A stretch of 64,000 nt of DNA. Origin: Chloroflexota bacterium. GTDB taxonomy: Bacteria; Chloroflexota; Dehalococcoidia; Lucifugimonadales; JADFKI01. The stretch is from NCBI GenBank assembly GCA_009840355.1, contig VXNZ01000033.1:14580-78579 (forward strand), written 5' to 3'. The position numbers and the translations under genes were made by a program. Below are positions 27,027 to 56,676 of the stretch, in pieces (the stretch's first letter is position 1; each line of letters opens with the position of its first letter). A model generated the notes under the pieces. That model made no database searches and was not told the DNA's origin. It worked only from the letters and a program-made list of their open reading frames with translations.

Positions 27027-28112
27027 ATGTACAAATTACAAGAACTTCTAGAATCCGCACTACACGAGATTGTGGAAAGTGATGATTGCAATCTGGATGC
27101 CAATCAATTGGAGGACAAGATTTCCAAAATGATTCCAGATGTCTGCGATGAAACAGCAACAGATATGTTGGCCAGTATCAAAGAAGACGCCTTTTCAGGC
27201 GGACTGGAAGAAGCTAGGACGGGAAGACGCGAATTTGAAAGAAGGTTAATGGAGGTTTGGAAAAAGCCGATAGAGCTTCTTGAGTTGTTCGTGTCATTAG
27301 CAACGGAAGCAGGCGTAGATTTCAACAGCGAGTTCGGCAACGAAGCCGTAAGTTCAGACGATTACTTGTTTGAAGCACTCACTAGATTGCATGGCAGAGC
27401 ATGCCAAGTGTCCAATGAAATTCTTGTCCTGTTGCGCTCAGGCTATGCAGATGGAGCACACGCACGCTGGCGGACCTTACACGAGATTGCAGTTATAAGC
27501 TTTTGTCTCAGCGAACCAGAAGAGGACGAGCACAGACAAGAATTAGCTGAAAAGTATTTACTGCATGACACCATACAGCGATATAAATTGGCGTGCCAAT
27601 ATCAGAAGTACGGCGAGAGGCTTGACTTGAAGCCGATTCCACAAGAGGAGTTCGATAATCTCCAGACAGAGTACAACAAGCTCATAGCCCGATTTTGCAA
27701 ACCATTCGAGAAACCCTACGGATGGGCAGCATCACCAAAGAGCCCTACGATGACAGCAATTGAAGAGCGCGTTGAATTGGCTCATTGGCGTCCCTACTAC
27801 AAAATGGCAAGCGATAATGTGCATGCAAATGCACATGGAAGTCACTTTAGACTAGGTTTGGCCCCACTTGACGAGGATATGATTTTGGCGGGACCAAGCA
27901 ACGCGGGATTAGTCGATCCCGGGCATTCAACTGCAATCTCACTCAATCAGATAACCGCAGTCTTGCTCGGAACTAGGTCAAACTTCGACTGCGCGGTCGT
28001 CTTGATGATATTACAGAAATTGGTAAACGAGATTGGGGAAGCATTTCTTGAAGCACACAATTATGTTGAAATGTTATCCAATAGTGAAAATGAGACAGAA
28101 AGCGCGACATGA
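27027..28112 (+). CDS. Hypothetical protein, DUF5677-like (family assignment from memory, not searched)
   Basis: 361 aa, low GC (about 42% in sampled lines). Core RLHGRACQVSNEILVLLRSGYADGAHARWRTLHEIAVISF. Stop overlaps the MTase start (ATGA). Confidence 0.6.
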   Translation: MYKLQELLESALHEIVESDDCNLDANQLEDKISKMIPDVCDETATDMLASIKEDAFSGGLEEARTGRREFERRLMEVWKKPIELLELFVSLATEAGVDFNSEFGNEAVSSDDYLFEALTRLHGRACQVSNEILVLLRSGYADGAHARWRTLHEIAVISFCLSEPEEDEHRQELAEKYLLHDTIQRYKLACQYQKYGERLDLKPIPQEEFDNLQTEYNKLIARFCKPFEKPYGWAASPKSPTMTAIEERVELAHWRPYYKMASDNVHANAHGSHFRLGLAPLDEDMILAGPSNAGLVDPGHSTAISLNQITAVLLGTRSNFDCAVVLMILQKLVNEIGEAFLEAHNYVEMLSNSENETESAT

Positions 28113-29725
28113 TCCCCTCCCCCAACGCCCTCTACTTCGGCGACAACCTCGACATCCTGCGCCAGCACATCCCCGACGAGTCCGTTGACCTCATATACCT
28201 GGACCCGCCGTTTAACTCTAACGCCACCTACAATGTGCTCTTCCGCGAGCGCAGCGGCGAGGAGTCGGCGGCGCAAATCACCGCCTTCGACGACACATGG
28301 CGCTGGAACATCGAATCCGAGCTTGCATATCAGGACGTCGTAACCCAGCAGGGCGGAAAAGTCGGCGAACTGCTCGCAGCCATGCGCGCCTTCCTCGGAC
28401 AGAACGACATGATGGCGTACCTCACCATGATGGCGCAGCGCATGGTCGAACTCCACCGCGTCCTAAAACCCACCGGCAGCATCTACCTCCACTGCGACCC
28501 CACCGCAAGCCACTACCTCAAACTGCTGATGGACGCCGTGTTCGGCCCGGAGAACTTTCAGAGCGAAATCACTTGGCAGCGCACGAGTTCCCACAATGAC
28601 TCAAAGCGATTTGGGCAGGTGAAGGACGCGCTACTTTTCTATTCTAAGTCCAGTAGTCGAAAATGGAATCCCGTATTTGTGCCGCACGACGAAAAGTACG
28701 TGTCGAATTTCTATCGCTATGAAGATGACAAAGGCAAATACAGGCTTCAAGAGATTATACGAACCGCCTCAATGGGTCCTCGACCAAATCTCGCCTATGA
28801 GTACAAAGGTTACACCCCCGAATGGGGATGGCGGATGGAACGGGACAAGCTGGAGTCTCTTGACAATGATGGGCGTCTTGTCTGGTCAAGTACCGGGCGT
28901 CCGTACCGCAAAACGTACCTCTCTCAGGGCAGAGCACCTACAAATCTATGGACAGATATTAAGAACCTGTCAGCGCAAGCCCGTGAACGCCTCGGCTACC
29001 CCACGCAAAAGCCCGAGGCATTGCTCGAACGCATCATCAGCGCGTCCAGCAACGAAGGCGATGTCGTACTCGACCCGTTCTGCGGCTGCGGAACAGCAGT
29101 CGCCGCCGCAGAGCGTCTCAACCGCCGCTGGGTCGGCATAGACATAACCCACCTCGCCATCACCCTCATCCGCCACCGCCTGCACGATACATTCGGCGAA
29201 GACCTGCGCCCCTACGAAGTCGTCGGCGAGCCGAAAGACCTGCCCAGCGCCGAGTCCCTAGCCCTCCACGACCGCTACCAGTTCGAGTGGTGGGCGCTCG
29301 GCTTGGTCGATGCCCGCCCCGCCCGCGACCGCAAGAAGGGCGCAGACGCCGGCATAGACGGCTACATCAGCTTCTTCGACGACAACAGCGGCAAGCCCAA
29401 GCGCATAGTCGTACAGGTCAAGAGCGGCGGCGTGCAGCGCAGCCAGATCGCCACGCTCAAATCTGACATGGAGCGCGAAAAAGCCGACCTCGCCCTGTTC
29501 GTAACCCTCAAGCCGCCCACGCGCCCGATGCAGCAAGAAGCATTGGAAGCCGGCTTCTACGCCCCCGAAGCCTTCCCCGACCACCGCTTCCCCCGCGTGC
29601 AAGTCCTCACCATCGAAGACCTACTCTCCGGCACGCAGCCCCAATACCCCCGCTACGCCCCCGCCGCAACCTTCCCCCGCGCGCCGAGGCGACGGCGGCA
29701 AGGACGGCAAGGGAGACTGGGGTAG
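28109..29725 (+). CDS. Beta-class amino DNA methyltransferase (N6A or N4C) fused to a C-terminal Mrr-like PD-(D/E)xK nuclease-fold domain
   Basis: IYLDPPFNS (motif IV) near the N-terminus, VLDPFCGCGTAV (motif I) about aa 320. C-terminal GADAGIDGYISF...IVVQVKSGG. Confidence 0.85.
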   Translation: MIPSPNALYFGDNLDILRQHIPDESVDLIYLDPPFNSNATYNVLFRERSGEESAAQITAFDDTWRWNIESELAYQDVVTQQGGKVGELLAAMRAFLGQNDMMAYLTMMAQRMVELHRVLKPTGSIYLHCDPTASHYLKLLMDAVFGPENFQSEITWQRTSSHNDSKRFGQVKDALLFYSKSSSRKWNPVFVPHDEKYVSNFYRYEDDKGKYRLQEIIRTASMGPRPNLAYEYKGYTPEWGWRMERDKLESLDNDGRLVWSSTGRPYRKTYLSQGRAPTNLWTDIKNLSAQARERLGYPTQKPEALLERIISASSNEGDVVLDPFCGCGTAVAAAERLNRRWVGIDITHLAITLIRHRLHDTFGEDLRPYEVVGEPKDLPSAESLALHDRYQFEWWALGLVDARPARDRKKGADAGIDGYISFFDDNSGKPKRIVVQVKSGGVQRSQIATLKSDMEREKADLALFVTLKPPTRPMQQEALEAGFYAPEAFPDHRFPRVQVLTIEDLLSGTQPQYPRYAPAATFPRAPRRRRQGRQGRLG

Positions 29726-33703: not shown

Positions 33704-34627
33704 TTACGGCTGCAGGTGCTTGGCGAAGAACTCGTTTGTTATTGCTGTGTGCTTGTAACGGCCTGCTTCATGGCCGTGCCCGTCGTAGGCGTACAGCTGC
33801 TTGTCGGAACTGGCTATGGCGTTGTGCAAGGCATAGCCGGTCTCAGGCGGGCATACATTGTCCTGCAAACCGATGTTCATGATAATCGGGCACTGTATCC
33901 TGTCGGCGAAGCTGATGCCGTCGAAGTAGGCGAGCGTACGCTCAACATCCTCACGGCTGTCGGGATGCGCTTTCAGATAGTCGTTGATTTCCTGATACGG
34001 ATACGAGCTAGTGAGCGCGATAGCGTCCATGTAGCCACACAGGTACGGCGCACCCGCCGATGCGGCTTTGATTTCAGGGCGCATCGCGGCGGTCGTGATG
34101 GTCAACCCGCCGCCCTGACTGCTGCCCGTAACGCCAATACGATCGGGATCAACTTCATCTCGCGTCAGCAGGTAGTCGATGGTGCGCCACGCATCCACAT
34201 AGAAGCCCCTGTACGAGTATGTGTTACGGTCAATGATGTTATGTGTCAGCAGGTTCGGGTAGCCGGGGTTGAACTGCGCATTGCTGCGGAGCTTGCCGCG
34301 CGGCGCCGCCGTAACCGCAGCGTATCCCTGACGCGCCCATTCCTTCGGTATCGCCGGGTCGCTCTGGTAGCCGGGCATCAACACAACGGCGGGCAGCGGC
34401 CTCTGCCTGTCTCTCGGCACGCAGTACCACGCGGCGACCCGCACGCCGTCGAGACTGTCGTAGGAAATCTCGAATGTCTCCAATTCGTCCGAGCTGCGCA
34501 AGGGAAGAGATACCGTCTCCGGGTTGAGCGGGATATTCGCCGCCTCGTCCAGCACATTGCCCCAGAATTCGTCGAAATCGTCAGGCTTGCTGACACTGCA
34601 CTTGTAATCCGAAATCATGTCGTCCAT
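33704..34627 (-). CDS. Acetylxylan esterase / cephalosporin-C deacetylase family (AXE1, CE7)
   Basis: 307 aa; RIGVTGSSQGGGL nucleophile elbow; C-terminal YDGHGHE. Confidence 0.85.
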   Translation of the reverse strand: MDDMISDYKCSVSKPDDFDEFWGNVLDEAANIPLNPETVSLPLRSSDELETFEISYDSLDGVRVAAWYCVPRDRQRPLPAVVLMPGYQSDPAIPKEWARQGYAAVTAAPRGKLRSNAQFNPGYPNLLTHNIIDRNTYSYRGFYVDAWRTIDYLLTRDEVDPDRIGVTGSSQGGGLTITTAAMRPEIKAASAGAPYLCGYMDAIALTSSYPYQEINDYLKAHPDSREDVERTLAYFDGISFADRIQCPIIMNIGLQDNVCPPETGYALHNAIASSDKQLYAYDGHGHEAGRYKHTAITNEFFAKHLQP

Positions 34628-39327: not shown

Positions 39328-40053
39328 ATGACAATTACCAAAAATCGGGATCCCTTAGGACACCTGAAGACGCAGGAAGACATAGTCGCTTACTTGGAGG
39401 CGGCGCTGGCAGACGGTGACGGCAAGCTCATAGCCGCCGCGCTCGAAGACATCGCGCGCGCCAGGGGGATAACCTTCACTGCCAGCCGTCCGGATTCAGC
39501 GCCGACGCGCCGACGCTTCACCGTAGCGGAATACTACGCCATGGCAAACATCGGCATCCTGCACGAAAACGACCGCATCGAGCTGCTGGACGGAGACCTG
39601 ATAGTTATGCCGCCCATCGGAGACTGGCACGCCGCCAGCGTTGACAGATTTACCAATATGCTGCCTCCCCGATTGCAGGGACGGGCAATCGTGCGCGTCC
39701 AAAACCCGACACGCCTAAACGACAACAGCGAGCCTCAGCCCGACATTATGCTGCTGCGATGGCGCGATGACTTCTACGGCGCAGGACACCCCGGACCGGC
39801 CGATGTGCTGCTACTCATCGATGTCTCCGATACGAGTGTTGACTACGACCGCAACGACAAGCTGTCAGAATACGCTCGCGCAGGCATTCCGGAAGTGTGG
39901 ATTGCCACTAGGCAAGACCGCCGCATCGAAGCCTACACCGAACCCGTCGAGGGCGAATACTCCAATGTGCGCTATGCCGCTCCCGGCGAAAGCATAGCTC
40001 CGCAGGCGTTCCCGGAAGTGGTTCTCGAAGTCGGCAGTCTCATAGCCGACTGA
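39328..40053 (+). CDS. Fusion protein: N-terminal half of a HigA-type addiction-module antidote protein joined to a Uma2-family (DUF820) endonuclease-fold domain
   Basis: N-terminus LGHLKTQEDIVAYLEAALADGDGKLIAAALEDIARARGI. Then RRFTVAEYYAMANIGILHENDRIELLDGDLIVMPPIG...DVLLLIDVSDTSVDYDRNDKLSEYARAGIPEVWI. Confidence 0.75.
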   Translation: MTITKNRDPLGHLKTQEDIVAYLEAALADGDGKLIAAALEDIARARGITFTASRPDSAPTRRRFTVAEYYAMANIGILHENDRIELLDGDLIVMPPIGDWHAASVDRFTNMLPPRLQGRAIVRVQNPTRLNDNSEPQPDIMLLRWRDDFYGAGHPGPADVLLLIDVSDTSVDYDRNDKLSEYARAGIPEVWIATRQDRRIEAYTEPVEGEYSNVRYAAPGESIAPQAFPEVVLEVGSLIAD

Positions 40054-44729: not shown

Positions 44730-46199
44730 TTACGCGCGTTCCATTGCGCCGGCTAGGACGGGGCGCAGGTTGGTGGTGCCCATCAGGTATTGGTCAACGC
44801 CGCGCGCCGCTTCTCTGCCCTCGGCGAGCGCCCAGACTACCAGCGACTGCCCGCGCGCCATATCGCCAGCTGCGAACACGCCATCTACGCTGGTCATCTT
44901 GTTCGTGTCGGTCTGCACATTGCCGCGGCCGTCTAGCGCGACGCCCAGCTGCTCCACGATGCCTTCGCGCTGTGGACTCACGAAGCCCATCGCCAGCAGC
45001 ACGAGGTCGGTGTCTATCACGAACTCGCTGCCCTCTATTCGCTCCATGCTCGGGCGGCCGGATGCGTCGGGCGGGCCCCAGTTGACGCGAACGGCGTGCA
45101 GCTTCTCCACGTTGCCGTTGCTGCCGGAGAAGTGCGTCGTCAGCACATCATAGTCGCGCACACCGCCCTCTTCCTGCGAAGACGATGTGCGCAGGATCAT
45201 AGGCCACTGAGGCCAGGGGTTGTTCTCACCGCGCTCGATCGGCGGCTCGGACAGCAGCTCGCACTGATAGACAATTTCAGCGCCCTGCCGGTGCGATGTG
45301 CCTAGGCAGTCGGAGCCGGTATCGCCTCCGCCCAGTATTACCACGCGCTTGCCCTCGGCACTGATACGCTCATCGTCAGGAATATGCTCGCCGGCGTTCA
45401 AACGATTCTGCTGCGTCAGGAAATCCATCGCGAAATGCACGCCATCCAGCTCGCGGCCGGGAACAGGCAGGTCTCGCGGGATGGTGCAGCCGCCGGTCAG
45501 CACGACCGCGTCGAACTCGCGCGTCAGCTCTTCGCCGGAAATGTCAACGCCCACATTGACTCCGCACTTGAAGATAATACCCTCTGCCGTCATCTGATCG
45601 ACGCGCCGCTGCACGACGGTCTTTTCCAGCTTGAAGTCCGGGATGCCGAGCCGCAGCAGTCCGCCAATGTAGTCGTCGCGCTCGAACACGGTAACCCAGT
45701 GTCCGCAACGATTGATCTGCTGCGCGGCGGCAAGCCCTGCTGGACCCGAACCGACCACGGCGACCTTCTTGCCCGTGCGCTGCGACGGCGATTCAGGGAC
45801 TATCCAGCCTTCTTGCCAGCCTCTGTCCGCGATCGCCTTTTCGATGTACTCGATGGTAACCGGGTCTTGGTTGATGTTCAGCACGCAAGCGGCTTCGCAC
45901 GGCGCGGGACATATTCTGCCGGTGAACTCGGGGAAGTTGTTCGTGGCGTGAAGCTCAGCCAGAGCCTCCTGCCACTTGCCTCGATACACGAGATCGTTAA
46001 AGTCTGGTATCAGGTTTCCCAGCGGACAACCCGTATGGCAGAACGGAACGGCGCAGTTCATGCACCTTGCGCCCTGCTCTTTAGCCTGCTCTTCGCCCCA
46101 ATTGTAGTAGAACTCGCTGAAATGCCGGATTCGGTCGCTAACAGCCTGCTGCGGCGGTCCCTGCCGTCCGTATTCCTTGAAACCCGTTGGCTTTCCCAT
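44730..46199 (-). CDS. gltD: Glutamate synthase small subunit (NADPH)
   Basis: MGKPTGFKEYGRQ conserved N-terminus (start taken at internal Met 46199); VAVVGSGPAGLAAA. Confidence 0.9.
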   Translation of the reverse strand: MGKPTGFKEYGRQGPPQQAVSDRIRHFSEFYYNWGEEQAKEQGARCMNCAVPFCHTGCPLGNLIPDFNDLVYRGKWQEALAELHATNNFPEFTGRICPAPCEAACVLNINQDPVTIEYIEKAIADRGWQEGWIVPESPSQRTGKKVAVVGSGPAGLAAAQQINRCGHWVTVFERDDYIGGLLRLGIPDFKLEKTVVQRRVDQMTAEGIIFKCGVNVGVDISGEELTREFDAVVLTGGCTIPRDLPVPGRELDGVHFAMDFLTQQNRLNAGEHIPDDERISAEGKRVVILGGGDTGSDCLGTSHRQGAEIVYQCELLSEPPIERGENNPWPQWPMILRTSSSQEEGGVRDYDVLTTHFSGSNGNVEKLHAVRVNWGPPDASGRPSMERIEGSEFVIDTDLVLLAMGFVSPQREGIVEQLGVALDGRGNVQTDTNKMTSVDGVFAAGDMARGQSLVVWALAEGREAARGVDQYLMGTTNLRPVLAGAMERA

Positions 46200-46279
46200 G
46201 TATCGGTTCGCCTGCGCTCTCACTCAGCCATTCCTGCGATTGCAGGAATGTCGTGGTTGTAAATGATATGTCGTTCAGA

Positions 46280-49200
46280 TTAGTCCGCGGCAATTGCGGC
46301 TGCGCGCTCCATCAGTATGCGCTTGTAGTCGTGGGGCATCACCTTAACGAACTTGGGCAGCATTGCGTCCCAGTCGTCCAGCACGCGGCGGGCGTTTGCG
46401 CTGCCGGTCTGTTCGTAATGCTCTTCTATCAGGCTGCGCAGTCCGTGTTCGTCTTCGGCGTCTTCCACATTTTCCAAGCCGACCATCTCATGGTTGCAGA
46501 GGGACGCGAAATCGCCGCTCTCGTCCAGCACATACGCCTCGCCGCCGCTCATACCTGCGGCGAAATTGCGCCCGGTCGGTCCAAGCACGACCACCTTGCC
46601 GCGCGTCATGTATTCGCAACCGTGCTCGCCAACGCCTTCTACGACGGTCTCCGCGCCGCTGTTGCGCACTGCGAAGCGCTCGCCCGCGACGCCGCGGATA
46701 AACGCCTTGCCCCCCGTAGCGCCATATAATACTACATTGCCCACGATAATGTTTTCTTCCGGCGTGAAAGACGCTTCCGGCGGCGGTGCGATGACAACCT
46801 TGCCGCCGGACAAGCCCTTGCCAAAGTAGTCGTTGGCGTCGCCGCGCACGCGCATCGTAACGCCCTTCGCGAGGAACGCGGAAAAACTTTGCCCCGCCGA
46901 GCCGCTGAAGTTTATCGTTATCGTATCGTCAGGCAGCGCCTCGATGCCGTGCCGCTTAGCAATCTCGTAACTGAGCGTCGTGCCAACCGTGCGATTGCGA
47001 TTGCTTATCGGCAGGTCGAGCGTCACCGCCTTCTTGGAATCGATGGCGTCCACGCACAACTCGATAAGTTCGTTGTCCAGCGCGCGTTCCAGCCCGTGGT
47101 CTTGCTCTTCACGGCAGTATGTCGCAACCGAGTCCGGCACCTGCGGCATATACAGCAGGTTGGAGAAGTCCAAGCCTTGCGCCTTCCAGTGTGCGACTGC
47201 TTCGCGCGTGTCGAGCCTGTCCATGCGGCCGACCATTTCGTTTATGGTACGGAAGCCCATCTCCGCCATGATCTGCCGCAGTTCTTCGGCGACGAAGAAG
47301 AAGTAGTTGATGACATATTCGGGCTTGCCGGCGAACATCTTGCGCAGTTCGGGGTCTTGCGTGGCGACGCCGACCGAGCAGGTGTTCAGGTGGCATTTGC
47401 GCAGCATAATGCAGCCAAGGCTGATTAGCGGCGCGGTCGCCATGCCGAACTCTTCCGCGCCAAGCAGGCATGCGATTGCCACATCCCTGCCCGTCTTTAG
47501 CTGCCCGTCCGTCTGCACGACGATTCTGCCGCGCAGGTCATTGAGCACCAGCACTTGCTGCGTCTCGGCGACACCGAGCTCCCACGGCAAGCCCGCGTGC
47601 TTGATGGACGATTCCGGCGATGCACCCGTGCCGCCGCTGTCGCCGCTGATTAGCACGACATCGCCGTGCCCCTTGGATACGCCGGCCGCGATAGTGCCGA
47701 CGCCCGCCTCTGCGACGAGTTTGACATGCACTCGCGCGTCGGGATTGGAGTTCTTCAGGTCGTGGATAAGCTGCGCCAAGTCTTCGATTGAGTATATGTC
47801 ATGGTGCGGCGGCGGCGAGATTAGTTCGACGCCGGGCGTGGAGTTGCGCACCCAGCCGATGTACTCGTCTATCTTGTGCCCCGGGAGCTGCCCGCCCTCG
47901 CCGGGCTTGGAGCCTTGCGCCATCTTAATCTGCAAGTCACGCGCGCTGGCGAGGTAGTTGATGGTAACGCCGAAACGTCCGGACGCAACCTGCTTCATGG
48001 CGCTGTTGCGCGAGTCGCCGTTTTCGTCCGGCGTGTAGCGATGGAAGTCTTCGCCGCCCTCGCCGGTGTTGCTACGCGCGCCGATTCGGTTCATCGCTAT
48101 CGCCATCGTCTCGTGCGCCTCGCGGCTAATGGAGCCAAGCGAGATTGCGCCGGTGGCGAAGCGTTTCACGATGTCCGCCGCGGGTTCCACTTCGTCCAAA
48201 GACAGCGGCGTATCCGCCATCTTGAAATCCAGCAATCCTCTGATTGTGCAGAGTTCGCGGCTGAAATTGTTGGCGAAATCCGCGAACTGCTGGTAAGTCT
48301 CGTAATTGTTCGTCTTCGTTGCGAACTGCAGGCGGCTGATAGTGTCCGGATTCCACATGTGGTATTCGCCGTCGCGCCGCCACTGGTAGAAACCGCCGGT
48401 CTGCAAGTTTAGGCTGCTCGTAGGCGAAAGTTGGTGGAATGCCGCTTCGTGGCGCTTGCGGCTTTCCTGCTCTATCTCGTAGATGCCGATGCCGCCGATG
48501 CGCGATGGCGTCCAAGTGAAGTAGTCGTCGATGAATTCGGAGTTCAGCCCCACAGCCTCAAATATCTGCGCGCCGCGATAGCTTTCGATTGTGGATATGC
48601 CCATCTTGGACATAATCTTCAGGATGCCCTTGTCAGCAGCCTTGATGTAATTGTACACGCCGGTCTCGTAATCGACCATGCCCGCTAGCGCGCCGCCATC
48701 TTCCGCCATATCGCGGATTGTCTCGAATGCGAGATATGGATTGACAGCGACCGCGCCGTAGCCAATGAGCACGGCAAGATGCGCGACCTCACGCGGTTCG
48801 CCGGATTCGACGATGAGGCTGACTTTCGTACGCACGCCCTGCCGTATGAGGTGGTGATGCACAGCAGCGACGGCGAGAAGACTGGGAATGGGCGCGTTGT
48901 ACACATCCACGCACCTATCGGACAGGATGATGATTGTGTTGCCCGCTTCGACGGCTTCGTATACTTCGTCGCATATCTGCCGGACCGCGCGTGCGAGTGC
49001 GCCGTCATTCTCGTCTGTGGTGAACAGCGTGCGTATCGTCTTCGCCTTCAAGCCGGGCAGGTCGATTTGGCGTATCTTTTCGAGTTCAGGATTAGACAGC
49101 ACCGGGCGCTTTACGCGCAGTGTGCGGCAATGTTCCGGTGTCTCGGTGAACAGGTTGCGCTCGCTGCCAACGCGCGATTCGAGCGATGTAACGAGTTCTT

Positions 49201-50821
49201 CACGGATCGCGTCCAGCGGCGGGTTGCTGACTTGCGCGAACAGCTGTTTGAAGTAGTTGAAGAGCAACGGGCTTTGTTCCGAAAGAACCGCGAGCGGCGT
49301 GTCGTTGCCCATCGAGCCTATCGGTTCGCTACCCGTTTCCGCCATCGGTTCCATAATCATGCGCATATCTTCGAGCGTGTAGCCAAATGCCACCTGGCGC
49401 GCAGTCAGCCCGCCGTTGGTTAATGTGGGCTGCTCCGGCTCGTCCGGCAGGTCATCCAGGGACACGCGGTTCTCGCGCAGCCATTCGCCGTAGGGCTGCT
49501 GTGCGGCAAGCGAGCTCTTCAGCTCGGCGTCGTCCACGAGGCGGCCATCTTCGGTGTCCAGCATGAACATACGGCCAGGATGGATGCGATCCTTGAACAG
49601 CACATCTTCCGCCGGCACATCCAGCACGCCGGTCTCGGACGCCATCACCAGCAAGTCGTCGGTGGTAACGAGATAGCGGCACGGGCGCAAGCCGTTCCTG
49701 TCGAGCACAGCGCACACCTTCGTGCCATCGGACGCGATGATAAGAGCGGGGCCGTCCCACGGCTCCATCAGGCAGGAATGATACTCGTAGAAGTCCTTCT
49801 TAGCCTGGTCCATCGGCAGATGGTCGCCCCACGCCTCCGGTATCATCATCATCAAGGCATGCGGCAGGGAGCGGCCTGTGGCGAGCAGCAGTTCCAGCGC
49901 GTTGTCGAAGCTGGCAGTGTCGCTCTGCACGCCCTTCGTGACGATGGGCAGCAGCTTATCCAAATCATCGCCGAGCGCATCGGACGCGAACATGCCTTCA
50001 CGCGCCGTCATCCAATTGATGTTGCCTCGCAGGGTGTTTATCTCACCGTTGTGTATCACCATGCGATACGGGTGCGCCAGCCGCCAGGAGCCGAGCGTGT
50101 TCGTGCTAAAGCGCGAGTGCACCAGCGCGAAAGAGGTAACCACACTCTCATCAGCCAGATCGTGGTAGAAATGCTGAAGCTGCGTGGCGTGAATCAGCCC
50201 CTTATACACAATCTTGTTTGGCGATAGGCTGGACACATAGAAGTCATTCCGTTCGTCCAGACCGGACTCCGCAACGGCGTCCTCGAACTGCCTGCGAATG
50301 ACATACAGCTTCATCTCGAAATCGAAGTCAGTCTGCAAGTCTGCGCTGCGTCCGACGAAGAACTGCCGAATAGCAGGCATTACTTCGTATGCTAATGTAC
50401 CAATCTCATTGGGTGATATAGGCACATCACGCCAGCCAAGCAGCGCCTGCCCTTCCTGCTCCACGAAGCTGCGCACTATGCCTTCGACTTGGCGCTGCCT
50501 CGCTTCGTCATGCGGCATGAAAACCATGCCGACCGCGTAATTACCCGGCTGCGGAGGCTCGACGCCAAGTTGCTGCATCTCCTTGCGGAAGAATTCATGC
50601 GGCATTTGTATTAGCACGCCGGCGCCGTCACCCGTCTCCGGGTCAGCGCCCTTCGCACCGCGATGTTCGAGATTGCACAGCACTTCAAGTCCGCGCTTGA
50701 GGATGTCGTGCGATCGCACACCCTTGATATTGGCGACAAGCCCCACACCGCAGGCTTCGTGCTCAAAGCGCGGGTCGTACAGCCCTTGCTTGGTCAAGTT
50801 GGGTATGTATCTCTCGGACAT
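46280..50821 (-). CDS. gltB: Glutamate synthase large subunit
   Basis: 1513 aa; N-terminal amidotransferase starting ...FEHEACGVG; FMN and GXGXG domains. Confidence 0.95.
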
Positions 50822-51024: not shown

Positions 51025-52362
51025 TTATAGCACCGGCAAATAGTGCTCTTTCTCGTAGTCCGCCACGCGGCTGTGATAGTTCTCCCACTCTATCTTCTTA
51101 TTCTCTATGAAGCTGTTGAACACAGCCCCTCCCAGCGCGTCTTGCACGAGTTCACTTCGTTCGGTGATGCCAATTGCCTCCCACAGATTGGCAGGCAGCG
51201 CCTCGATGCCAAGTTCGTCGCGTTCCGCTTGCGTCAGGCGAAGGGCGTTCACCTGCGCGGGCTGCGGGAATTCGTAGCGATTCTCGATGCCCTTTAAGCC
51301 AGCCGCCAACATCACGCTGAACGCCAGATACGGATTGCACGCCGGATCGGGCGAGCGAAACTCGATGCGCCGCGATTCTTCCCTGCCCGGCTTGAAGTCG
51401 GGCACACGAATGAGGTCGGCACGGTTGACAGTTGACCATGTAACATAGGTCGGCGCCTCGAACGCTGGCACGAGGCGCTTGTACGAGTTCACCCACTGGT
51501 TAGTTACGGCGGTAATCTCGCGGGCGTGCTTCATCAGCCCTGCGATGAAGAACTTCGCCGTCTCGGACAGATGGTGTTCGTCATCGTCGTCGTAGAAGGC
51601 GTTCCTGTCGCCTTGGAACAGCGACTGGTGCATGTGCATGCCGCTGCCGTTCACGCCGTCCAGCGGCTTGGGCATGAAGGTCGCGTAATAGCCGTTCTGC
51701 CGCGCGACCTCTTTGACCACCAGCCGATAAGTCATAATCGTATCCGCCATGGTGAGGGCGTCTGTGTGGCGCAAATCGATTTCGTGCTGGCTGGGCGCGC
51801 CTTCCTGATGGCTGGATTCGACAGGGATGCCGATGTCTTCGAGCGTCAGGACGGTCTGGCGGCGCAGGTCGGTCGCATCGTCGCCGGCGCCCTGCCCGAA
51901 GTAGCTGCCCCTGTCCTCGGTAACCGTGCCCTTCGCGTCTTTGAAATAGAAGTACTCTATTTCCGGGCCGACATAGTATGTATAGCCGAGTTTCGATGCG
52001 TCCGCGAGGTTGCGCCTGAGCACGGCGCGCGGGTCGCTTTCGAGAGGTTCGTCGTCGGGCGTGATGATGTCGCAGAACATGCGCGCAACGGCGTTCTCGC
52101 GCGGCCGCCATGGCAGCACGTTGAAGGTGTTCGGGTCGGGCAGCGCGTACATATCGCGCTCGTCCGAGCGCACAAAGCCTTCAATCGCGGAACCGTCAAA
52201 GCCCATGCCGCGTGTGAGCGAGTGCTCGAGTTCTTCGACTGTGATGGCGAAGCCCTTCAGATTGCCTAGTATGTCGGCGAACCATAGACGAATAAACTTG
52301 ACATCGTTCTCTCGCGCCTCACGCAGAACGAATTCAGTCGCTTCGTAGTCTCTCGCTAACAT
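51025..52362 (-). CDS. glnA: Glutamine synthetase type I
   Basis: 445 aa; FDGSAIEGF, NGSGMHMHQS motifs. Confidence 0.95.
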   Translation of the reverse strand: MLARDYEATEFVLREARENDVKFIRLWFADILGNLKGFAITVEELEHSLTRGMGFDGSAIEGFVRSDERDMYALPDPNTFNVLPWRPRENAVARMFCDIITPDDEPLESDPRAVLRRNLADASKLGYTYYVGPEIEYFYFKDAKGTVTEDRGSYFGQGAGDDATDLRRQTVLTLEDIGIPVESSHQEGAPSQHEIDLRHTDALTMADTIMTYRLVVKEVARQNGYYATFMPKPLDGVNGSGMHMHQSLFQGDRNAFYDDDDEHHLSETAKFFIAGLMKHAREITAVTNQWVNSYKRLVPAFEAPTYVTWSTVNRADLIRVPDFKPGREESRRIEFRSPDPACNPYLAFSVMLAAGLKGIENRYEFPQPAQVNALRLTQAERDELGIEALPANLWEAIGITERSELVQDALGGAVFNSFIENKKIEWENYHSRVADYEKEHYLPVL

Positions 52363-52697: not shown

Positions 52698-53708
52698 TTA
52701 CGCCGATGCCGCCGAGCCGACGGTGTTGATGATGAGTTCCGTAACCTTGTACGGATCCATGTTGGCGTTGGGTCGCCTGTCCTCGATGTAGCCCTTGCCG
52801 TCGCGGGCGACCTGCCAAGGTATCCGAACGGACGCGCCCCTGTCGGAGACGCCGTATTTGAATTCCTTGTAGGATGCGGTCTCGTGGAGGCCGGTCAGCC
52901 TCTGTTCGATGTCCGCGCCATAGTTGGCGATATGCTCTTCGTGGTTGCCGCCAAGCGCCTCTGCCGCGGCAATGCAGGCATCGTAGTTCTCGCGCATGGC
53001 GTTCGTGGAGAAATTGGTGTGCGCTCCGGCGCCGTTCCAGTCGCCTTTGACGGGCTTGGGATCGAGCGTGGCGGCGACGCTGTGGCTCTCACCGATGCGA
53101 TACAGCAGCCAGCGCGCGATCCAGAGCTGGTCTGCCACTGCGGGCGAGCCGACGGGACCGACCTGGAACTCCCACTGCGCGGGCATAACTTCGGCGTTGA
53201 TACCGGAGATTTCCAAGCCGGCTGCGATGCAGGCGTCTAGATGCTCTTCGACTACCGGGCGGCCGAACACTTCGTCCGAACCGACGCCGCAGTAGTAGCC
53301 GCCCTGCGGTGCGGGGAAGCCATTCTCGGGCCAGCCAAGAGGCTGCGACCTGACGCCGGTGAAGAAGGTGTATTCCTGCTCGATGCCGAACCAGAAGTCC
53401 AGGTCGGCGTACTTCTCGGCGGCAGCTGCGCATGCTGCGCGCGTGTTGGAGGGATGCGGGGTCATGTCCGGCAGCAGCACTTCGCACATCACCAGCACGT
53501 TGTCGCCGCCACGGATCGGGTCAGGGCAGGTGAACACGGGGTTCAGCACGCAGTCCGAGTCCTCGCCGGGCGCCTGGTTAGTACTGGAGCCGTCAAAGCC
53601 CCACACCGGCGGCTCTTCGCCGACGGGCACAACTTTGCCCTTAGAGCGGAGTTTGGCGGTAGGCTCGGTGCCGTCCACCCAGATGTATTCCGCCTTGTAA
53701 ACATTCAT
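52698..53708 (-). CDS. glnII: Glutamine synthetase type II (eukaryote-like GSII)
   Basis: MNVYKAEYIWVDGTEPTAKLRSKGKVV start typical of GSII; 336 aa; AGGAGG upstream. Confidence 0.85.
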   Translation of the reverse strand: MNVYKAEYIWVDGTEPTAKLRSKGKVVPVGEEPPVWGFDGSSTNQAPGEDSDCVLNPVFTCPDPIRGGDNVLVMCEVLLPDMTPHPSNTRAACAAAAEKYADLDFWFGIEQEYTFFTGVRSQPLGWPENGFPAPQGGYYCGVGSDEVFGRPVVEEHLDACIAAGLEISGINAEVMPAQWEFQVGPVGSPAVADQLWIARWLLYRIGESHSVAATLDPKPVKGDWNGAGAHTNFSTNAMRENYDACIAAAEALGGNHEEHIANYGADIEQRLTGLHETASYKEFKYGVSDRGASVRIPWQVARDGKGYIEDRRPNANMDPYKVTELIINTVGSAASA

Positions 53709-53820
53709 TCCTTGCCTCCTGTTGGGACTATATGACTAGAGCGCCTTAACGGATTATCGGTCCGCCATGTCGGGCGGATTGGCGTGTGATACGCTGCCGC
53801 AAATCGGTTTAGACAGCAAA

Positions 53821-53854
53821 CCAGCGAGACTTTCATGTGATAAAGCCTCGCTGG
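53821..53854 (-). terminator. Strong hairpin between the sORF and glnII (possible attenuator or processing site)
   Basis: On the minus-strand RNA: CCAGCGAG-G-CUUU [AUCACAUG] AAAG-U-CUCGCUGG, 13 bp including one G-U. Weak U-tract. Confidence 0.45.
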
Positions 53855-53899
53855 TAATTTTACAAGATTTATGGCTGATTTCCAATTATTCAGCCGGGA

Positions 53900-53992
53900 T
53901 TACTTACTGCGGTTCCTGCGAACCGCGCTGGGAACAACCACCCACAAGGCGAACAACGCGGCGAATGCCACACCTGCTAGCATCAACTCCAT
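53900..53992 (-). CDS. 30-aa hydrophobic sORF upstream of glnII
   Basis: GGGAGG-7nt-ATG; MELMLAGVAFAALFALWVVVPSAVRRNRSK*. Below the track cutoff. Confidence 0.45.
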   Translation of the reverse strand: MELMLAGVAFAALFALWVVVPSAVRRNRSK

Positions 53993-54061
53993 AATAACTG
54001 CCTCCCGTGATAGAAGAATGTGTCTGTTGTGTATGAGTTACAAACCATTTTGCGGCAGGCA

Positions 54062-54100
54062 TGTTTCAAGCGTGTTACGCAATTGTTACATCGATGTTAC
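54062..54100 (-). promoter_or_regulatory. Four 11-bp-phased GTAACA/GAAACA boxes (GlnR-like operator array)
   Basis: Minus strand: GTAACA-tcgat-GTAACA-attgc-GTAACA-cgctt-GAAACA, about 70-105 nt upstream of the sORF start. Confidence 0.55.
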
Positions 54101-54220
54101 ATATTGCCGATTAACCAGCTTGGATACGCAGGATGGACAGGATAGGCTTCGTCGTGCCGTTTCCTGCCCATCCCGTCCCGTTACTTGTCCATTGACGCTA
54201 GCCGGCGTTAGCTTTGTCGA

Positions 54221-55528
54221 TTACTCGGCTACCGGATAGGCGACCGTGCCGTGCTCGTGCTCGTCCAGGCCGTCTTCCTCTTCCTGCTCATCAACGCGCA
54301 AGCCCATAGTCAGGTCTAGCACCTTGAATAGTATGAAGCCGCCGCCGAAGCCCCAGACTATCGCGGCGACGATGCCGACTATCTGCGGAATAATCTGCGT
54401 GAAGTTGCCGACTACCATTCCGGTTACATCGTTATGTCCGGTGGCAAAGATGCCTACCGCGAGCAAGCCCCAAGCGCCGCAGATGCCGTGCACCGTAACT
54501 GCGCCTACCGGGTCGTCCGCCTTCAGCACATTCTTCACGAAGCTGACGCCGAAGATCATTATGATGCCCGCTATCAGACCGATGACGACCGCCCCCCAAG
54601 TATCGACGTATGCGCAGCCGGCGGTGATGCCGACCAGACCGGCGAGCGCGCCGTTCGCCGCCATCTCGATGTCTGCCTTGCCTGTGCGAATCAGCGTTAC
54701 ATATATCGCGGCTGTCGCGCCGGCAGCGCCGGCGAGCAGCGTGTTGACCGCGTTCAAGCCGAGCGTCGCGGAGTTGATGTTGAAGCCGAACCAGCCGAAG
54801 AACAGGATGAAAGTGCCGATGACCACATACGGAACATTGTGACCGCGAATGGTGATGCCCTGCTCCCAGCCCTTGCGAGGACCGACGACCATCGCGCCGG
54901 CGAGCGCAAGGAAGCCGCCAATCATGTGCACGACGCCGGAGCCTGCGTAGTCAGCGAAGCCCATGCTTGCCAGCCAGCCGTGGTCGCTCCATGCCCAGTG
55001 TCCGTAGATTGGGTATATAAGCGCGCCGACGATGAAGCTATACGCGAAGTAGGCGTTGATCTTCGTGCGCTCTGCCATCGCTCCGGCAATAATCGTCGCC
55101 GCCGTGCCAGCGAAGACCATCTGGAAGAACCAGCTCACGAGGTCGCCGTCGTTGAAGTTAGCGAGGAAGAAACCTTCCAAGCCGATGAAACCTGCCGCCG
55201 CGCCGCCGCCGAACATCAGCGCATAGCCGAATGCCCAGAAGCCCAAAGACGCGATGCAGAAGTCCAAGAAGGACTTCGTCATGTAGTTTACGGTGTTCTT
55301 GGCGCGGATGAGTCCGGCGCCGAGGAAGGCAAAGCCTGCCTGCATGAAGAACACCAGCGCCGCCGCGACCACCAGAATCGCGTTGTCCAGCGTGCCCATA
55401 ACCTCTTCGGCGCTCTGTGCGTATGCGATGCCGCCGCCGCCCAGCACGATGCCGACAGCCAGCAGCCCAATCATCAGCAGGCGCATTTTCAAGGTCGTAG
55501 GCTTCAACATAGCCCCCAATAAAGTCAT
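54221..55528 (-). CDS. amtB: Ammonium transporter
   Basis: Amt family, polytopic (AGFAFLGAGLIRAKN, AGSGVVHMIGG). Start taken at MTLLGAML, preceded by a GGAAGGGAAAGAGAG purine tract. Confidence 0.9.
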   Translation of the reverse strand: MTLLGAMLKPTTLKMRLLMIGLLAVGIVLGGGGIAYAQSAEEVMGTLDNAILVVAAALVFFMQAGFAFLGAGLIRAKNTVNYMTKSFLDFCIASLGFWAFGYALMFGGGAAAGFIGLEGFFLANFNDGDLVSWFFQMVFAGTAATIIAGAMAERTKINAYFAYSFIVGALIYPIYGHWAWSDHGWLASMGFADYAGSGVVHMIGGFLALAGAMVVGPRKGWEQGITIRGHNVPYVVIGTFILFFGWFGFNINSATLGLNAVNTLLAGAAGATAAIYVTLIRTGKADIEMAANGALAGLVGITAGCAYVDTWGAVVIGLIAGIIMIFGVSFVKNVLKADDPVGAVTVHGICGAWGLLAVGIFATGHNDVTGMVVGNFTQIIPQIVGIVAAIVWGFGGGFILFKVLDLTMGLRVDEQEEEDGLDEHEHGTVAYPVAE

Positions 55529-55593
55529 CTCTCTTTCCCTTCCTTTCATGTAGTGTATGAGAATGACACGATGGGGAAAATCTACGCCACCAA

Positions 55594-55654
55594 TGTTTCA
55601 TTTATGTTAAGCAAATGTTACATGGTTGTTTCAAGAAAGTTGCAAGTCTGTTAC
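55594..55654 (-). promoter_or_regulatory. Six 11-bp-phased nnAAC boxes upstream of amtB (GlnR-like operator array)
   Basis: Minus strand: GTAAC-agactt-GCAAC-tttctt-GAAAC-aaccat-GTAAC-atttgc-TTAAC-ataaat-GAAAC. Box starts are spaced exactly 11 bp apart. Confidence 0.6.
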
Positions 55655-55736
55655 CCATACCAAACTCCTTTTGTGACGAGCCTTTGGAGCCTGTCGAACG
55701 GTGAACCGTTGGTCTACTGAAAACTCTTTCCCCTTG

Positions 55737-55745
55737 TGCTACAAT
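55737..55745 (+). promoter_or_regulatory. Candidate extended -10 element (TGCTACAAT)
   Basis: 29 nt upstream of ATG 55774. Confidence 0.35.
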
Positions 55746-55773
55746 CAAGCCACGACAAGCATCGATTGTTGGT

Positions 55774-55983
55774 ATGGCAAACCGAGAGCAGCGCATTGCG
55801 CAACTTGAAACCGCTCGGGCGGCGACCGACGAGCGCGTCGATGAGTGCCGAGACGACGTCAAAGCAAGTTTTGAGAAACTCGAAGCCGACATCAGGGAAG
55901 TCAGGAACTGGATTATCGGGCTTATAGGCCTTGCCGCAGGAGTAGGAACGGCCATCGTAGTGGCTCTGATTACAACAGGCTGA
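55774..55983 (+). CDS. Small coiled-coil protein with C-terminal TM anchor (XhlA/DUF1640-like architecture)
   Basis: MANREQRIAQLETARAATDERVDECRDDVKASFEKLEADIREVRNWIIGLIGLAAGVGTAIVVALITTG. Confidence 0.45.
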   Translation: MANREQRIAQLETARAATDERVDECRDDVKASFEKLEADIREVRNWIIGLIGLAAGVGTAIVVALITTG

Positions 55984-56031
55984 ATCGGGCCATCGACTCG
56001 AAGACATCCAAGCCGAAAGGAGACAGGCATT

Positions 56032-56676
56032 ATGGAGAACCTGAAAGTAGAAATTTACGGCGACTATGCTTGACCGTGGGTCTATAATACAGCCGTGTGG
56101 CTGGATAAGGTAAAGAAGGCTTACGGAGACAACCTGAATATCACTTGGAAGAACTTCTCCCTCGAGCAGAACGCTCACAATCTGAAAGAGGGCTTGGATT
56201 CCAACTGGAAAGTCTGGGAGCAGGAAGACGCATCGGAGCGCCGCTCGCTCGTATCGCAGATTGCTGCTGAGGCGGCACGACGACAGGGCGAAGATGCGCA
56301 TGCGAAGTTCCACCTGGCGCTGCTGGTCGCGCGGCACGGCGGCGAAGGCCGCATCTCGCTCAGCGACGAGGACGCGATCCTGGAACTCGCCGAGAGCTTG
56401 GGCTTGGACTCCGCCCAGATGCGCGAGGACATGAAGGACCCGGAACTGCGCCGCAAGATTGGCGAAGAACATGAAGCCGCAATCTCCGAGGGCATATTCG
56501 GCACGCCGACGTATGTGTTCGAGAACGGCAACATGGCATACCTGAAGGCGTTCATCCCCGACGACGAGGACGCGGTAGCATCGTTCGAGCACTACATAGC
56601 GCTCGCCAACCACCGCAACTACTTCGGCGAAATCAAGCGCCCGCAGCCCCCGTGGCCCAAGGGCGTGCTGGGGTAG
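56032..56676 (+). CDS. DsbA/FrnE-like thioredoxin-fold selenoprotein (in-frame TGA 56071..56073 read as Sec)
   Basis: MENLKVEIYGDYA-U-PWVYNTAVWLDKVKKAYG...ITWKNFSLEQ matches the family pattern (I/V)E(I/V)(Y/W)sD..CPWCY....... with U at the first Cys. In frame with track ORF 56095..56676 (GTG). Confidence 0.75.
56087..56106 (+). promoter_or_regulatory. Candidate bacterial SECIS hairpin for the DsbA-like gene
   Basis: CAGCC-GUGU-GGCUG perfect 5-bp stem starting 16 nt after UGA, extendable by AU/AU pairs. Confidence 0.5.

Follow-up and report, generated by a model that had tools for sequence, protein, structure and literature searches.

The stretch of DNA analysed here (hereafter the window) comprises 64,000 nucleotides from an uncultured, sponge-associated member of the Dehalococcoidia (Chloroflexota), recovered from a sponge metagenome on a source scaffold of 82 kb (ENA). 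Its minus strand harbors the ammonium transporter gene amtB (54221..55528), encoding a protein of 435 aa (Pfam Ammonium_transp, E = 1e-124) from the ATG at 55528; the gene call of the source contig uses this start too, and the longest ORF extends to 55549. This gene is followed on the same strand by one for a 30-aa single-helix membrane peptide, MELMLAGVAFAALFALWVVVPSAVRRNRSK (53900..53992), and downstream of it by one for a short glutamine synthetase of 336 aa (52698..53708; Pfam Gln-synt_N and Gln-synt_C), called glnII-type here by its length only. Further along the minus strand lie glnA (51025-52362, 445 aa, identified by Pfam), gltB (46280-50821) and gltD (44730-46223), the last two being assigned from their ORFs and from the Pfam families found for these genes on the source contig and in one relative. 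Elsewhere in the window there are unrelated genes that are probably of the defence or mobility type, namely a DUF5677 protein and, after it, a fusion of an N6/N4 DNA methylase with an Mrr-like endonuclease domain (27027-29725), and a putative endonuclease of the Uma2 family (39328-40053).

Upstream of amtB, an array of six 5-nt boxes in exact 11-bp register can be read directly from the minus strand (array 1, 55595..55654). In the 5' to 3' direction these boxes are GTAAC (55654-55650), GCAAC (55643-55639), GAAAC (55632-55628), GTAAC (55621-55617), TTAAC (55610-55606) and GAAAC (55599-55595), and they correspond on the plus strand to the hexamers TGTTTC, TGTTAA, TGTTAC, TGTTTC, AGTTGC and TGTTAC, which start at 55594, 55605, 55616, 55627, 55638 and 55649. 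The second array, with four boxes in 11-bp register (array 2, 54063..54100, minus strand), was read from the sequence and from a weight-matrix scan, and it sits between amtB and the 30-aa hydrophobic ORF, which is the first gene downstream of it. Its boxes are GTAAC (54100-54096), GTAAC (54089-54085), GTAAC (54078-54074) and GAAAC (54067-54063), with plus-strand hexamers starting at 54062 (TGTTTC), 54073, 54084 and 54095 (TGTTAC in each case). The trinucleotide AAC is invariant across all ten boxes, which are GTAAC, GAAAC, GCAAC or TTAAC. The original prediction had located the ten hexamers and the minus-strand reading of array 1 at these same coordinates, all of which were reconfirmed; it had placed the end of array 1 about 65 nt before the amtB start, the measured distance to the ATG at 55528 being 66 nt, and it had regarded box type and phasing as common to both arrays, which do agree in type, orientation and 11-bp register. 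A position-weight-matrix scan gave no box array before glnA or gltB/gltD in the window.

Both arrays lie far beyond what chance would produce. Runs of at least three GTT or AAC were counted along both strands of the 64 kb, with the period set to each value from 5 to 20 bp. A period of 11 bp yielded exactly two of them, the 6-box and the 4-box arrays, and only one other run of at least four appeared at any of these periods, a GTT 4-run of period 15 at 34223, inside an unrelated ORF region. A first-order Markov simulation of the whole window gives an expectation of 0.17 runs of at least three and 0.003 runs of at least four. The array region has a GC content of 46%, against 58% for the genome, and when the two AT-richer spacers supplied the composition for the simulations, a run of at least four arose in 0.05% of the trials and a run of at least six in 0 of 20,000. 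The original prediction had named shuffling as a check, in case such periodicity were common in the AT-rich spacers of this genome; in these simulations it is not. A position-weight matrix derived from related arrays gives the eight pairs of neighbouring boxes scores of 14.6-23.8 bits, and the other sites of the window reach at most 11.8.

The arrays also keep a fixed distance to a predicted promoter element. A putative -10 hexamer of the amtB promoter, TAGATT (55579..55584, minus strand), lies 10 nt downstream of the last box of array 1, and the predicted -10 hexamer of the array 2 promoter, CAAAAT (54047..54052, minus strand), follows the last box of its array by the same 10 nt. Of 32 arrays, 27 have the pattern nAnnnT exactly 10 nt downstream of the last box, 18 of them in the form TAnnnT, and at any other offset from 0 to 30 the pattern is found in at most 6 of the 32. 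With a 17-bp spacer, the predicted -35 position of amtB reads ACATAA, which matches TTGACA at one of six positions and overlaps the TTAAC box and its spacer. Since the last box stands at a fixed 10 nt from the -10 hexamer, this spacing would set the proximal box between -35 and -10, and the next box on the poor -35, a predicted geometry that corresponds to the layout of an activator-dependent promoter. A consensus promoter scan did not call the amtB promoter, as expected from its having no usable -35. The same layout is found at an amtB locus labelled as that of an uncultured Actinomycetes bacterium (TTCAC-n6-TAAAC-n6-GAAAC-n6-GAAAC, 10 nt, GAACCT; L021). An Rfam scan of the region from 50.5 to 56.2 kb gave no match, so that no known riboswitch or leader is present there.

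Conservation was assessed in 80 amtB loci, consisting of 20 of the Dehalococcoidia type (246 kb), 8 from other classes of Chloroflexota and 52 from outside the Chloroflexota (563 kb). As scored by the position-weight matrix, most of the 20 Dehalococcoidia-type loci carry between one and four arrays of at least three boxes; the 8 loci of other Chloroflexota classes have none, and the 52 non-Chloroflexota loci gave a single weak 3-box match. The original prediction had pointed to orthologous amtB promoters as a place where the array might be missing, and in the Dehalococcoidia orthologues it is present. In a register-anchored table, the loci with six boxes before amtB are that of the window, L001, L005-L008, L010 and L011, and those with four are L002, L003, L009 and L014; the number of boxes per array among the relatives is 4 or 6, that is, pairs. 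Among 65 units in relatives there are 32 GTAAC, 14 GAAAC, 9 TTAAC and 8 GCAAC boxes. Box position 1 is G in 83% of the units and the base immediately 3' of the box is A in 82%, neither position having been used for box selection; this refines the conserved unit to (t/c)G(T/A/C)AAC-A, the spacer positions being near-random. AmtB of the window is 77-80% identical to that of the nearest Dehalococcoidia MAGs, the next group (SAR202, other Dehalococcoidia and Chloroflexota) lying at about 54-61%, and in-register boxes persist over AmtB identities of 54-80%, with varying spacers. Two close relatives, one of them on a 594-kb contig (L098 and L100), keep the register with diverged spacers, and their upstream boxes have switched between allowed variants (GTAAC to GTAAT, GCAAC to TTAAC, GAAAC to GCAAC, and GTAAC to GTTAC), array 2 being identical in both. 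A register that is kept while boxes swap variants and spacers drift is the pattern to be expected of protein-binding sites under selection.

In most Dehalococcoidia-type amtB loci the first gene after the 4-box (at times 6-box) arrays encodes a membrane peptide of 27-42 aa. These peptides share the motif F-x-x-L-F-x-x-W-V-x-x-P, with invariant F, L, F, W and P, and have a basic tail after it. Searching with a profile retrieved 540 relatives at E <= 1e-3, all of them without names, and the peptide matches no family in Pfam or NCBIfam. Among the relatives the gene is located in L001 (7572), L002 (7651), L003 (7571), L005 (7457), L009 (8379, 8714 and 9096), L012 (1372), L014 (7529), L015 (7912 and 9118), L016 (5680), L017 (4650 and 5104), L022 (2354), L023 (5649) and L027 (5481). 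A cassette of four-box array, -10 hexamer and peptide gene has been tandemly duplicated in some of them, with three copies in L009 (8296-9180) and two each in L015 (7829-9200) and L017 (4539-5215). No PII gene (glnK or glnB) lies beside amtB in the window (53850-56200) or in the Dehalococcoidia-type loci L001-L023; such a gene is found within the locus in 45 of the 52 amtB loci of other phyla, and about 3 kb downstream in L027.

Between the peptide gene and glnII there is a sigma-70-like site, TTGGAA-17-TAAAAT (53885..53857, minus strand), and metatranscriptome depth is 2-10x higher over the glnII leader (53640-53909), where two contigs from related strains end at 53837 and 53846. These observations suggest that glnII also has a proximal promoter of its own. 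Parts of amtB, of the array 2 region and of the glnII leader are represented in sponge metatranscriptome contigs, which are fragmentary, derive from related strains and report transcription, not start sites.

The closest known counterpart of these arrays is the operator of GlnR, the nitrogen regulator of Actinobacteria. [quoted passage not shown] For the DNA-binding domain of S. erythraea GlnR, the crystal structure (8HML/8HIG) has revealed two domains arranged head-to-tail on GTAAC sites 11 bp apart (PMC10235972, PMC10704036). In the transcription activation complex of M. tuberculosis GlnR at the amtB promoter (GlnR-TAC, PDB 8HIH), four protomers are placed around a non-optimal -35, with the b2 site downstream of it; the proximal protomers contact the beta flap and sigma region 4, and the C-terminal domain of the alpha subunit touches the upstream a1 site and its GlnR protomer (PMC10235972). 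The Dehalococcoidia arrays share with this system the 5-nt G(T/A)nAC sites with invariant A4, the 6-nt spacers, the direct orientation, the 4-6 sites per promoter (six at amtB), and the amtB and glutamine synthetase gene targets; at the amtB promoter as predicted from the sequence, the proximal site would likewise lie 3' of a weak -35. They agree with the GlnR cis-element in sequence, spacing, orientation, number, targets and predicted position. The host, in contrast, belongs to the Dehalococcoidia (Chloroflexota) and not to the Actinobacteria, amtB of the window type is not followed by glnK-glnD, and a conserved micropeptide gene belongs to the predicted regulon, as do nifH and modABC in D. 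mccartyi-like genomes. What is found would thus be the known GlnR-box architecture in a new phylum, combined with a putatively divergent regulator.

Other operators were compared in the same way. The pho boxes of PhoB and PhoP resemble the arrays in that a regulator of the OmpR/PhoB family binds them head-to-tail on 11-bp direct repeats which replace a poor -35; their cores, TGTCA in E. coli and GTTCACC in Streptomyces, are however absent here, where the targets are nitrogen and not phosphate genes, and a regular-expression search of both strands found no TGTCA-n6-TGTCA pho box in either promoter. In other phyla, amtB and the genes for glutamine synthetase are also under the control of NtcA, TnrA and MerR-type GlnR, NtrC with sigma54, NrpR and AmtR, but these use palindromes or sigma-54 promoters, whereas the boxes described here are direct repeats. 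When both strands were scanned by regular expressions for GTAN8TAC, TGTNAN7TNACA, GGAAN6TTCC, CTATN6ATAG and the -24/-12 promoter, neither promoter had a motif for the operators of NtcA, TnrA, NrpR, AmtR or NtrC, or a sigma-54 promoter. Another OmpR-family protein, MtrA, is reported at the GlnR boxes of Streptomyces in the control of nitrogen genes, according to a reference listed in PMC10704036. MtrA works together with the kinase MtrB as a classical phosphorylated regulator and acts as a repressor; the Dehalococcoidia regulators described below differ from it in lacking the acidic pocket or the Asp, and most of them have no neighbouring kinase gene.

A gene for an OmpR-family protein was found neither in the window nor in the 82-kb source contig by Pfam scans of 30 ORFs, by tblastn and by inspection of the contig flanks, the tblastn queries being PhoB and the regulator of L023. 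This last protein (P0001, 233 aa) belongs to the OmpR family and is encoded in a locus of the Dehalococcoidales, between a four-box array and a unit of array, peptide gene and amtB. Its best solved relatives are GlnR of S. erythraea (E = 1e-31) and of M. tuberculosis (3.5e-30), followed by RegX3 (6e-22), and its best sequence matches in the PDB are 8HIG, 8HIH and 8HML, all of them GlnR (E = 1e-31 to 6e-28). The DNA-binding domain is 47-48% identical to that of GlnR and 44-46% to that of WalR/VicR, a modest margin, and the recognition helix, TRTVDVHIRRIRAKIG, keeps all four base-contacting residues (R186, V190, R193 and R194 in S. erythraea numbering). PhoB has these four residues as well, and being common to both they are no proof of GlnR specificity. 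The C-terminal Pfam domain Trans_reg_C was found in the candidate, both in P0001 of L023 and in P0009 of D. mccartyi, and P0001, P0006 and P0009 match neither PF21695 (GlnR_1st) nor PF00072 (Response_reg). The match of P0060 to GlnR_1st is weak and stays under the cut-off (P0116, a true GlnR, reaches 141 bits), and no NCBIfam model reaches its cut-off for the regulator, which is thus given no specific family there. An AlphaFold (AF2) model of the regulator shows a predicted (beta-alpha)5 receiver fold and a winged helix at a mean pLDDT of 84.6, with MtrA as the top fold match. The phospho-acceptor Asp is missing in P0001, P0006 and P0009, and the acidic pair in most members. No kinase gene adjoins the regulator gene in L023 or L084; in L085 and L086 a PAS histidine kinase gene adjoins it and is divergently transcribed.

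The genomic context of eight regulator homologues was examined. In D. mccartyi (L084 5952-12720) the regulator gene lies directly upstream of modABC-nifH-PII-PII-nifDK, and in another Dehalococcoidia lineage (L085 and L086 5938-12720) directly upstream of nifH-PII-PII-nifDK. Regulator genes of the D. mccartyi type have their own three-box array, followed after 10 nt by TATCAT, and the nifH promoter of D. mccartyi has five boxes, 10 nt and TAAAGT; among the relatives, arrays are also located before nifH, modA and a second amtB. The arrays are restricted to nitrogen genes. In other lineages a homologue is found upstream or downstream of glnA. No nitrogen genes lie near the homologues P0111 and P0094, and none that are recognisable near P0064. 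Atypical OmpR regulators also occur in apparent operons with glnA, as regulator-glnA or glnA-regulator (L087 5001-7046, L088 5001-7025 and L095 4628-6675); some regulators of this glnA-linked type give weak Pfam GlnR_1st matches. These three loci contain no GTAAC-type arrays, L087 having only a TTTAC-n6-TTTAC pair. Since the regulator gene adjoins array-controlled nitrogen genes, there is a genomic link within the Dehalococcoidia between a GlnR-like family, nitrogen genes and the arrays. The family assignment of the regulator, which we regard as putative, is based on the DNA-binding domain and on genomic context, and the GlnR-like regulator can be viewed as a candidate transcriptional regulator of nitrogen fixation in Dehalococcoides.

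We consider it likely that the arrays are GlnR-type operators for a GlnR-like nitrogen regulator of the OmpR/PhoB family in Dehalococcoidia, which would activate weak promoters under nitrogen limitation. The proposed model is that protomers bind in tandem and head-to-tail, each on a 5-nt site plus its 6-nt spacer and all on one face of the DNA, so that three dimers would assemble at amtB and two at the promoter of the peptide gene and glnII. The bound array would cover the -35 region, with the proximal box between -35 and -10, ending 10 bp before the latter, and the next box overlapping the non-consensus -35. From this position the protomers would reach the alpha subunits as well as the beta flap and sigma region 4, as they do in the actinobacterial GlnR activation complex, and by bending the DNA the regulator would recruit RNA polymerase, when nitrogen is scarce, to promoters that have no usable -35. 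The original prediction of a single regulator that would bind to both arrays, as several dimers on the same face of the DNA, gains support from the common box type, orientation and register, from the 10-nt distance to the -10 hexamer and from the pairing of boxes into 4 or 6. We infer that the organism of the window encodes such a GlnR-like regulator, which binds the boxes and activates transcription from them.

It could be argued that a different response regulator of the OmpR/PhoB type, for instance a classical phosphorylated PhoP-, MtrA- or WalR-like protein, binds the arrays. Direct repeats of 11 bp are generic for this family, the recognition-helix residues of the candidate are widespread, no regulator gene was found in the window or in the 82-kb contig, and MtrA and PhoP have been reported to bind or compete at the GlnR boxes of Streptomyces (PMC10704036, PMC10235972). 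The boxes are nevertheless of the GTAAC/GAAAC type, with no pho box, the targets are solely nitrogen genes, and in three independent Dehalococcoidia loci it is a GlnR-like gene, with its own array, that adjoins the array-controlled nitrogen genes, so that we hold a different regulator of this kind to be unlikely. A further alternative is that the arrays are no specific protein site and reflect intrinsic curvature, an AT phasing resembling UP elements, or chance; the array region is indeed AT-richer than the genome, and 11 bp is near the helical repeat. Such an origin is hardly credible in view of the 6-box run, which never arose in the 20,000 simulations at local composition, of the conservation of G at box position 1 and C at position 5, beyond the A/T positions, and of the persistence of the register over AmtB identities of 54-80% despite the varying spacers.

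The sign of the regulation has to be considered as well, because as repressor operators the arrays would hold a tandem protein that blocks the -35 and the spacer and silences amtB and the peptide gene when nitrogen is plentiful. The overlap of the two promoter-proximal boxes with the -35 position and the spacer is equally compatible with repression, and actinobacterial GlnR represses some of its targets too. According to a reference listed in PMC10704036, MtrA moreover represses nitrogen genes via GlnR boxes. A non-consensus -35 together with a -10 conserved at a fixed distance is, however, typical of activator-dependent promoters, the same geometry is that of an activation complex in the solved GlnR-TAC at the amtB promoter (PMC10235972), and amtB, the glnII region and nifH are normally induced by nitrogen limitation; a repressor function is accordingly regarded as quite improbable, and activation by a GlnR-like regulator is the reading that we prefer.

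In the searchable full-text literature, no paper was found that connects an OmpR-type GlnR with Chloroflexi, Chloroflexota or Dehalococcoides in the sense of nitrogen regulation; GlnR figures there as a regulator of Actinobacteria. How the transcription of nitrogen-assimilation genes is controlled in Chloroflexota and Dehalococcoidia appears to be uncharted, in a class that abounds in sponges, aquifers and the deep ocean and counts the bioremediation organism Dehalococcoides among its members. More speculatively, and in our opinion rather doubtfully, a GlnR-like family independent of phosphorylation might be the master nitrogen regulator of Dehalococcoidia, from sponge symbionts and marine lineages of the SAR202 type to the nif operon of D. 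mccartyi, with the unannotated membrane peptide of 27-42 aa as the most conserved member of its regulon, standing in for the absent GlnK by acting on AmtB or glutamine synthetase as a partner or regulator. The arrays define a testable regulon, which would consist of amtB, the micropeptide gene, the glutamine synthetase region, nifH, modABC and the gene of the regulator itself, and their promoter architecture can be compared with the solved GlnR activation complex. They also provide a candidate regulator for the control of nif in D. mccartyi and, for uncultured Dehalococcoidia, an annotation signature that may serve to recognise nitrogen-responsive promoters: four or six G(T/A/C)AAC boxes at 11 bp, followed after 10 nt by TAnnnT.
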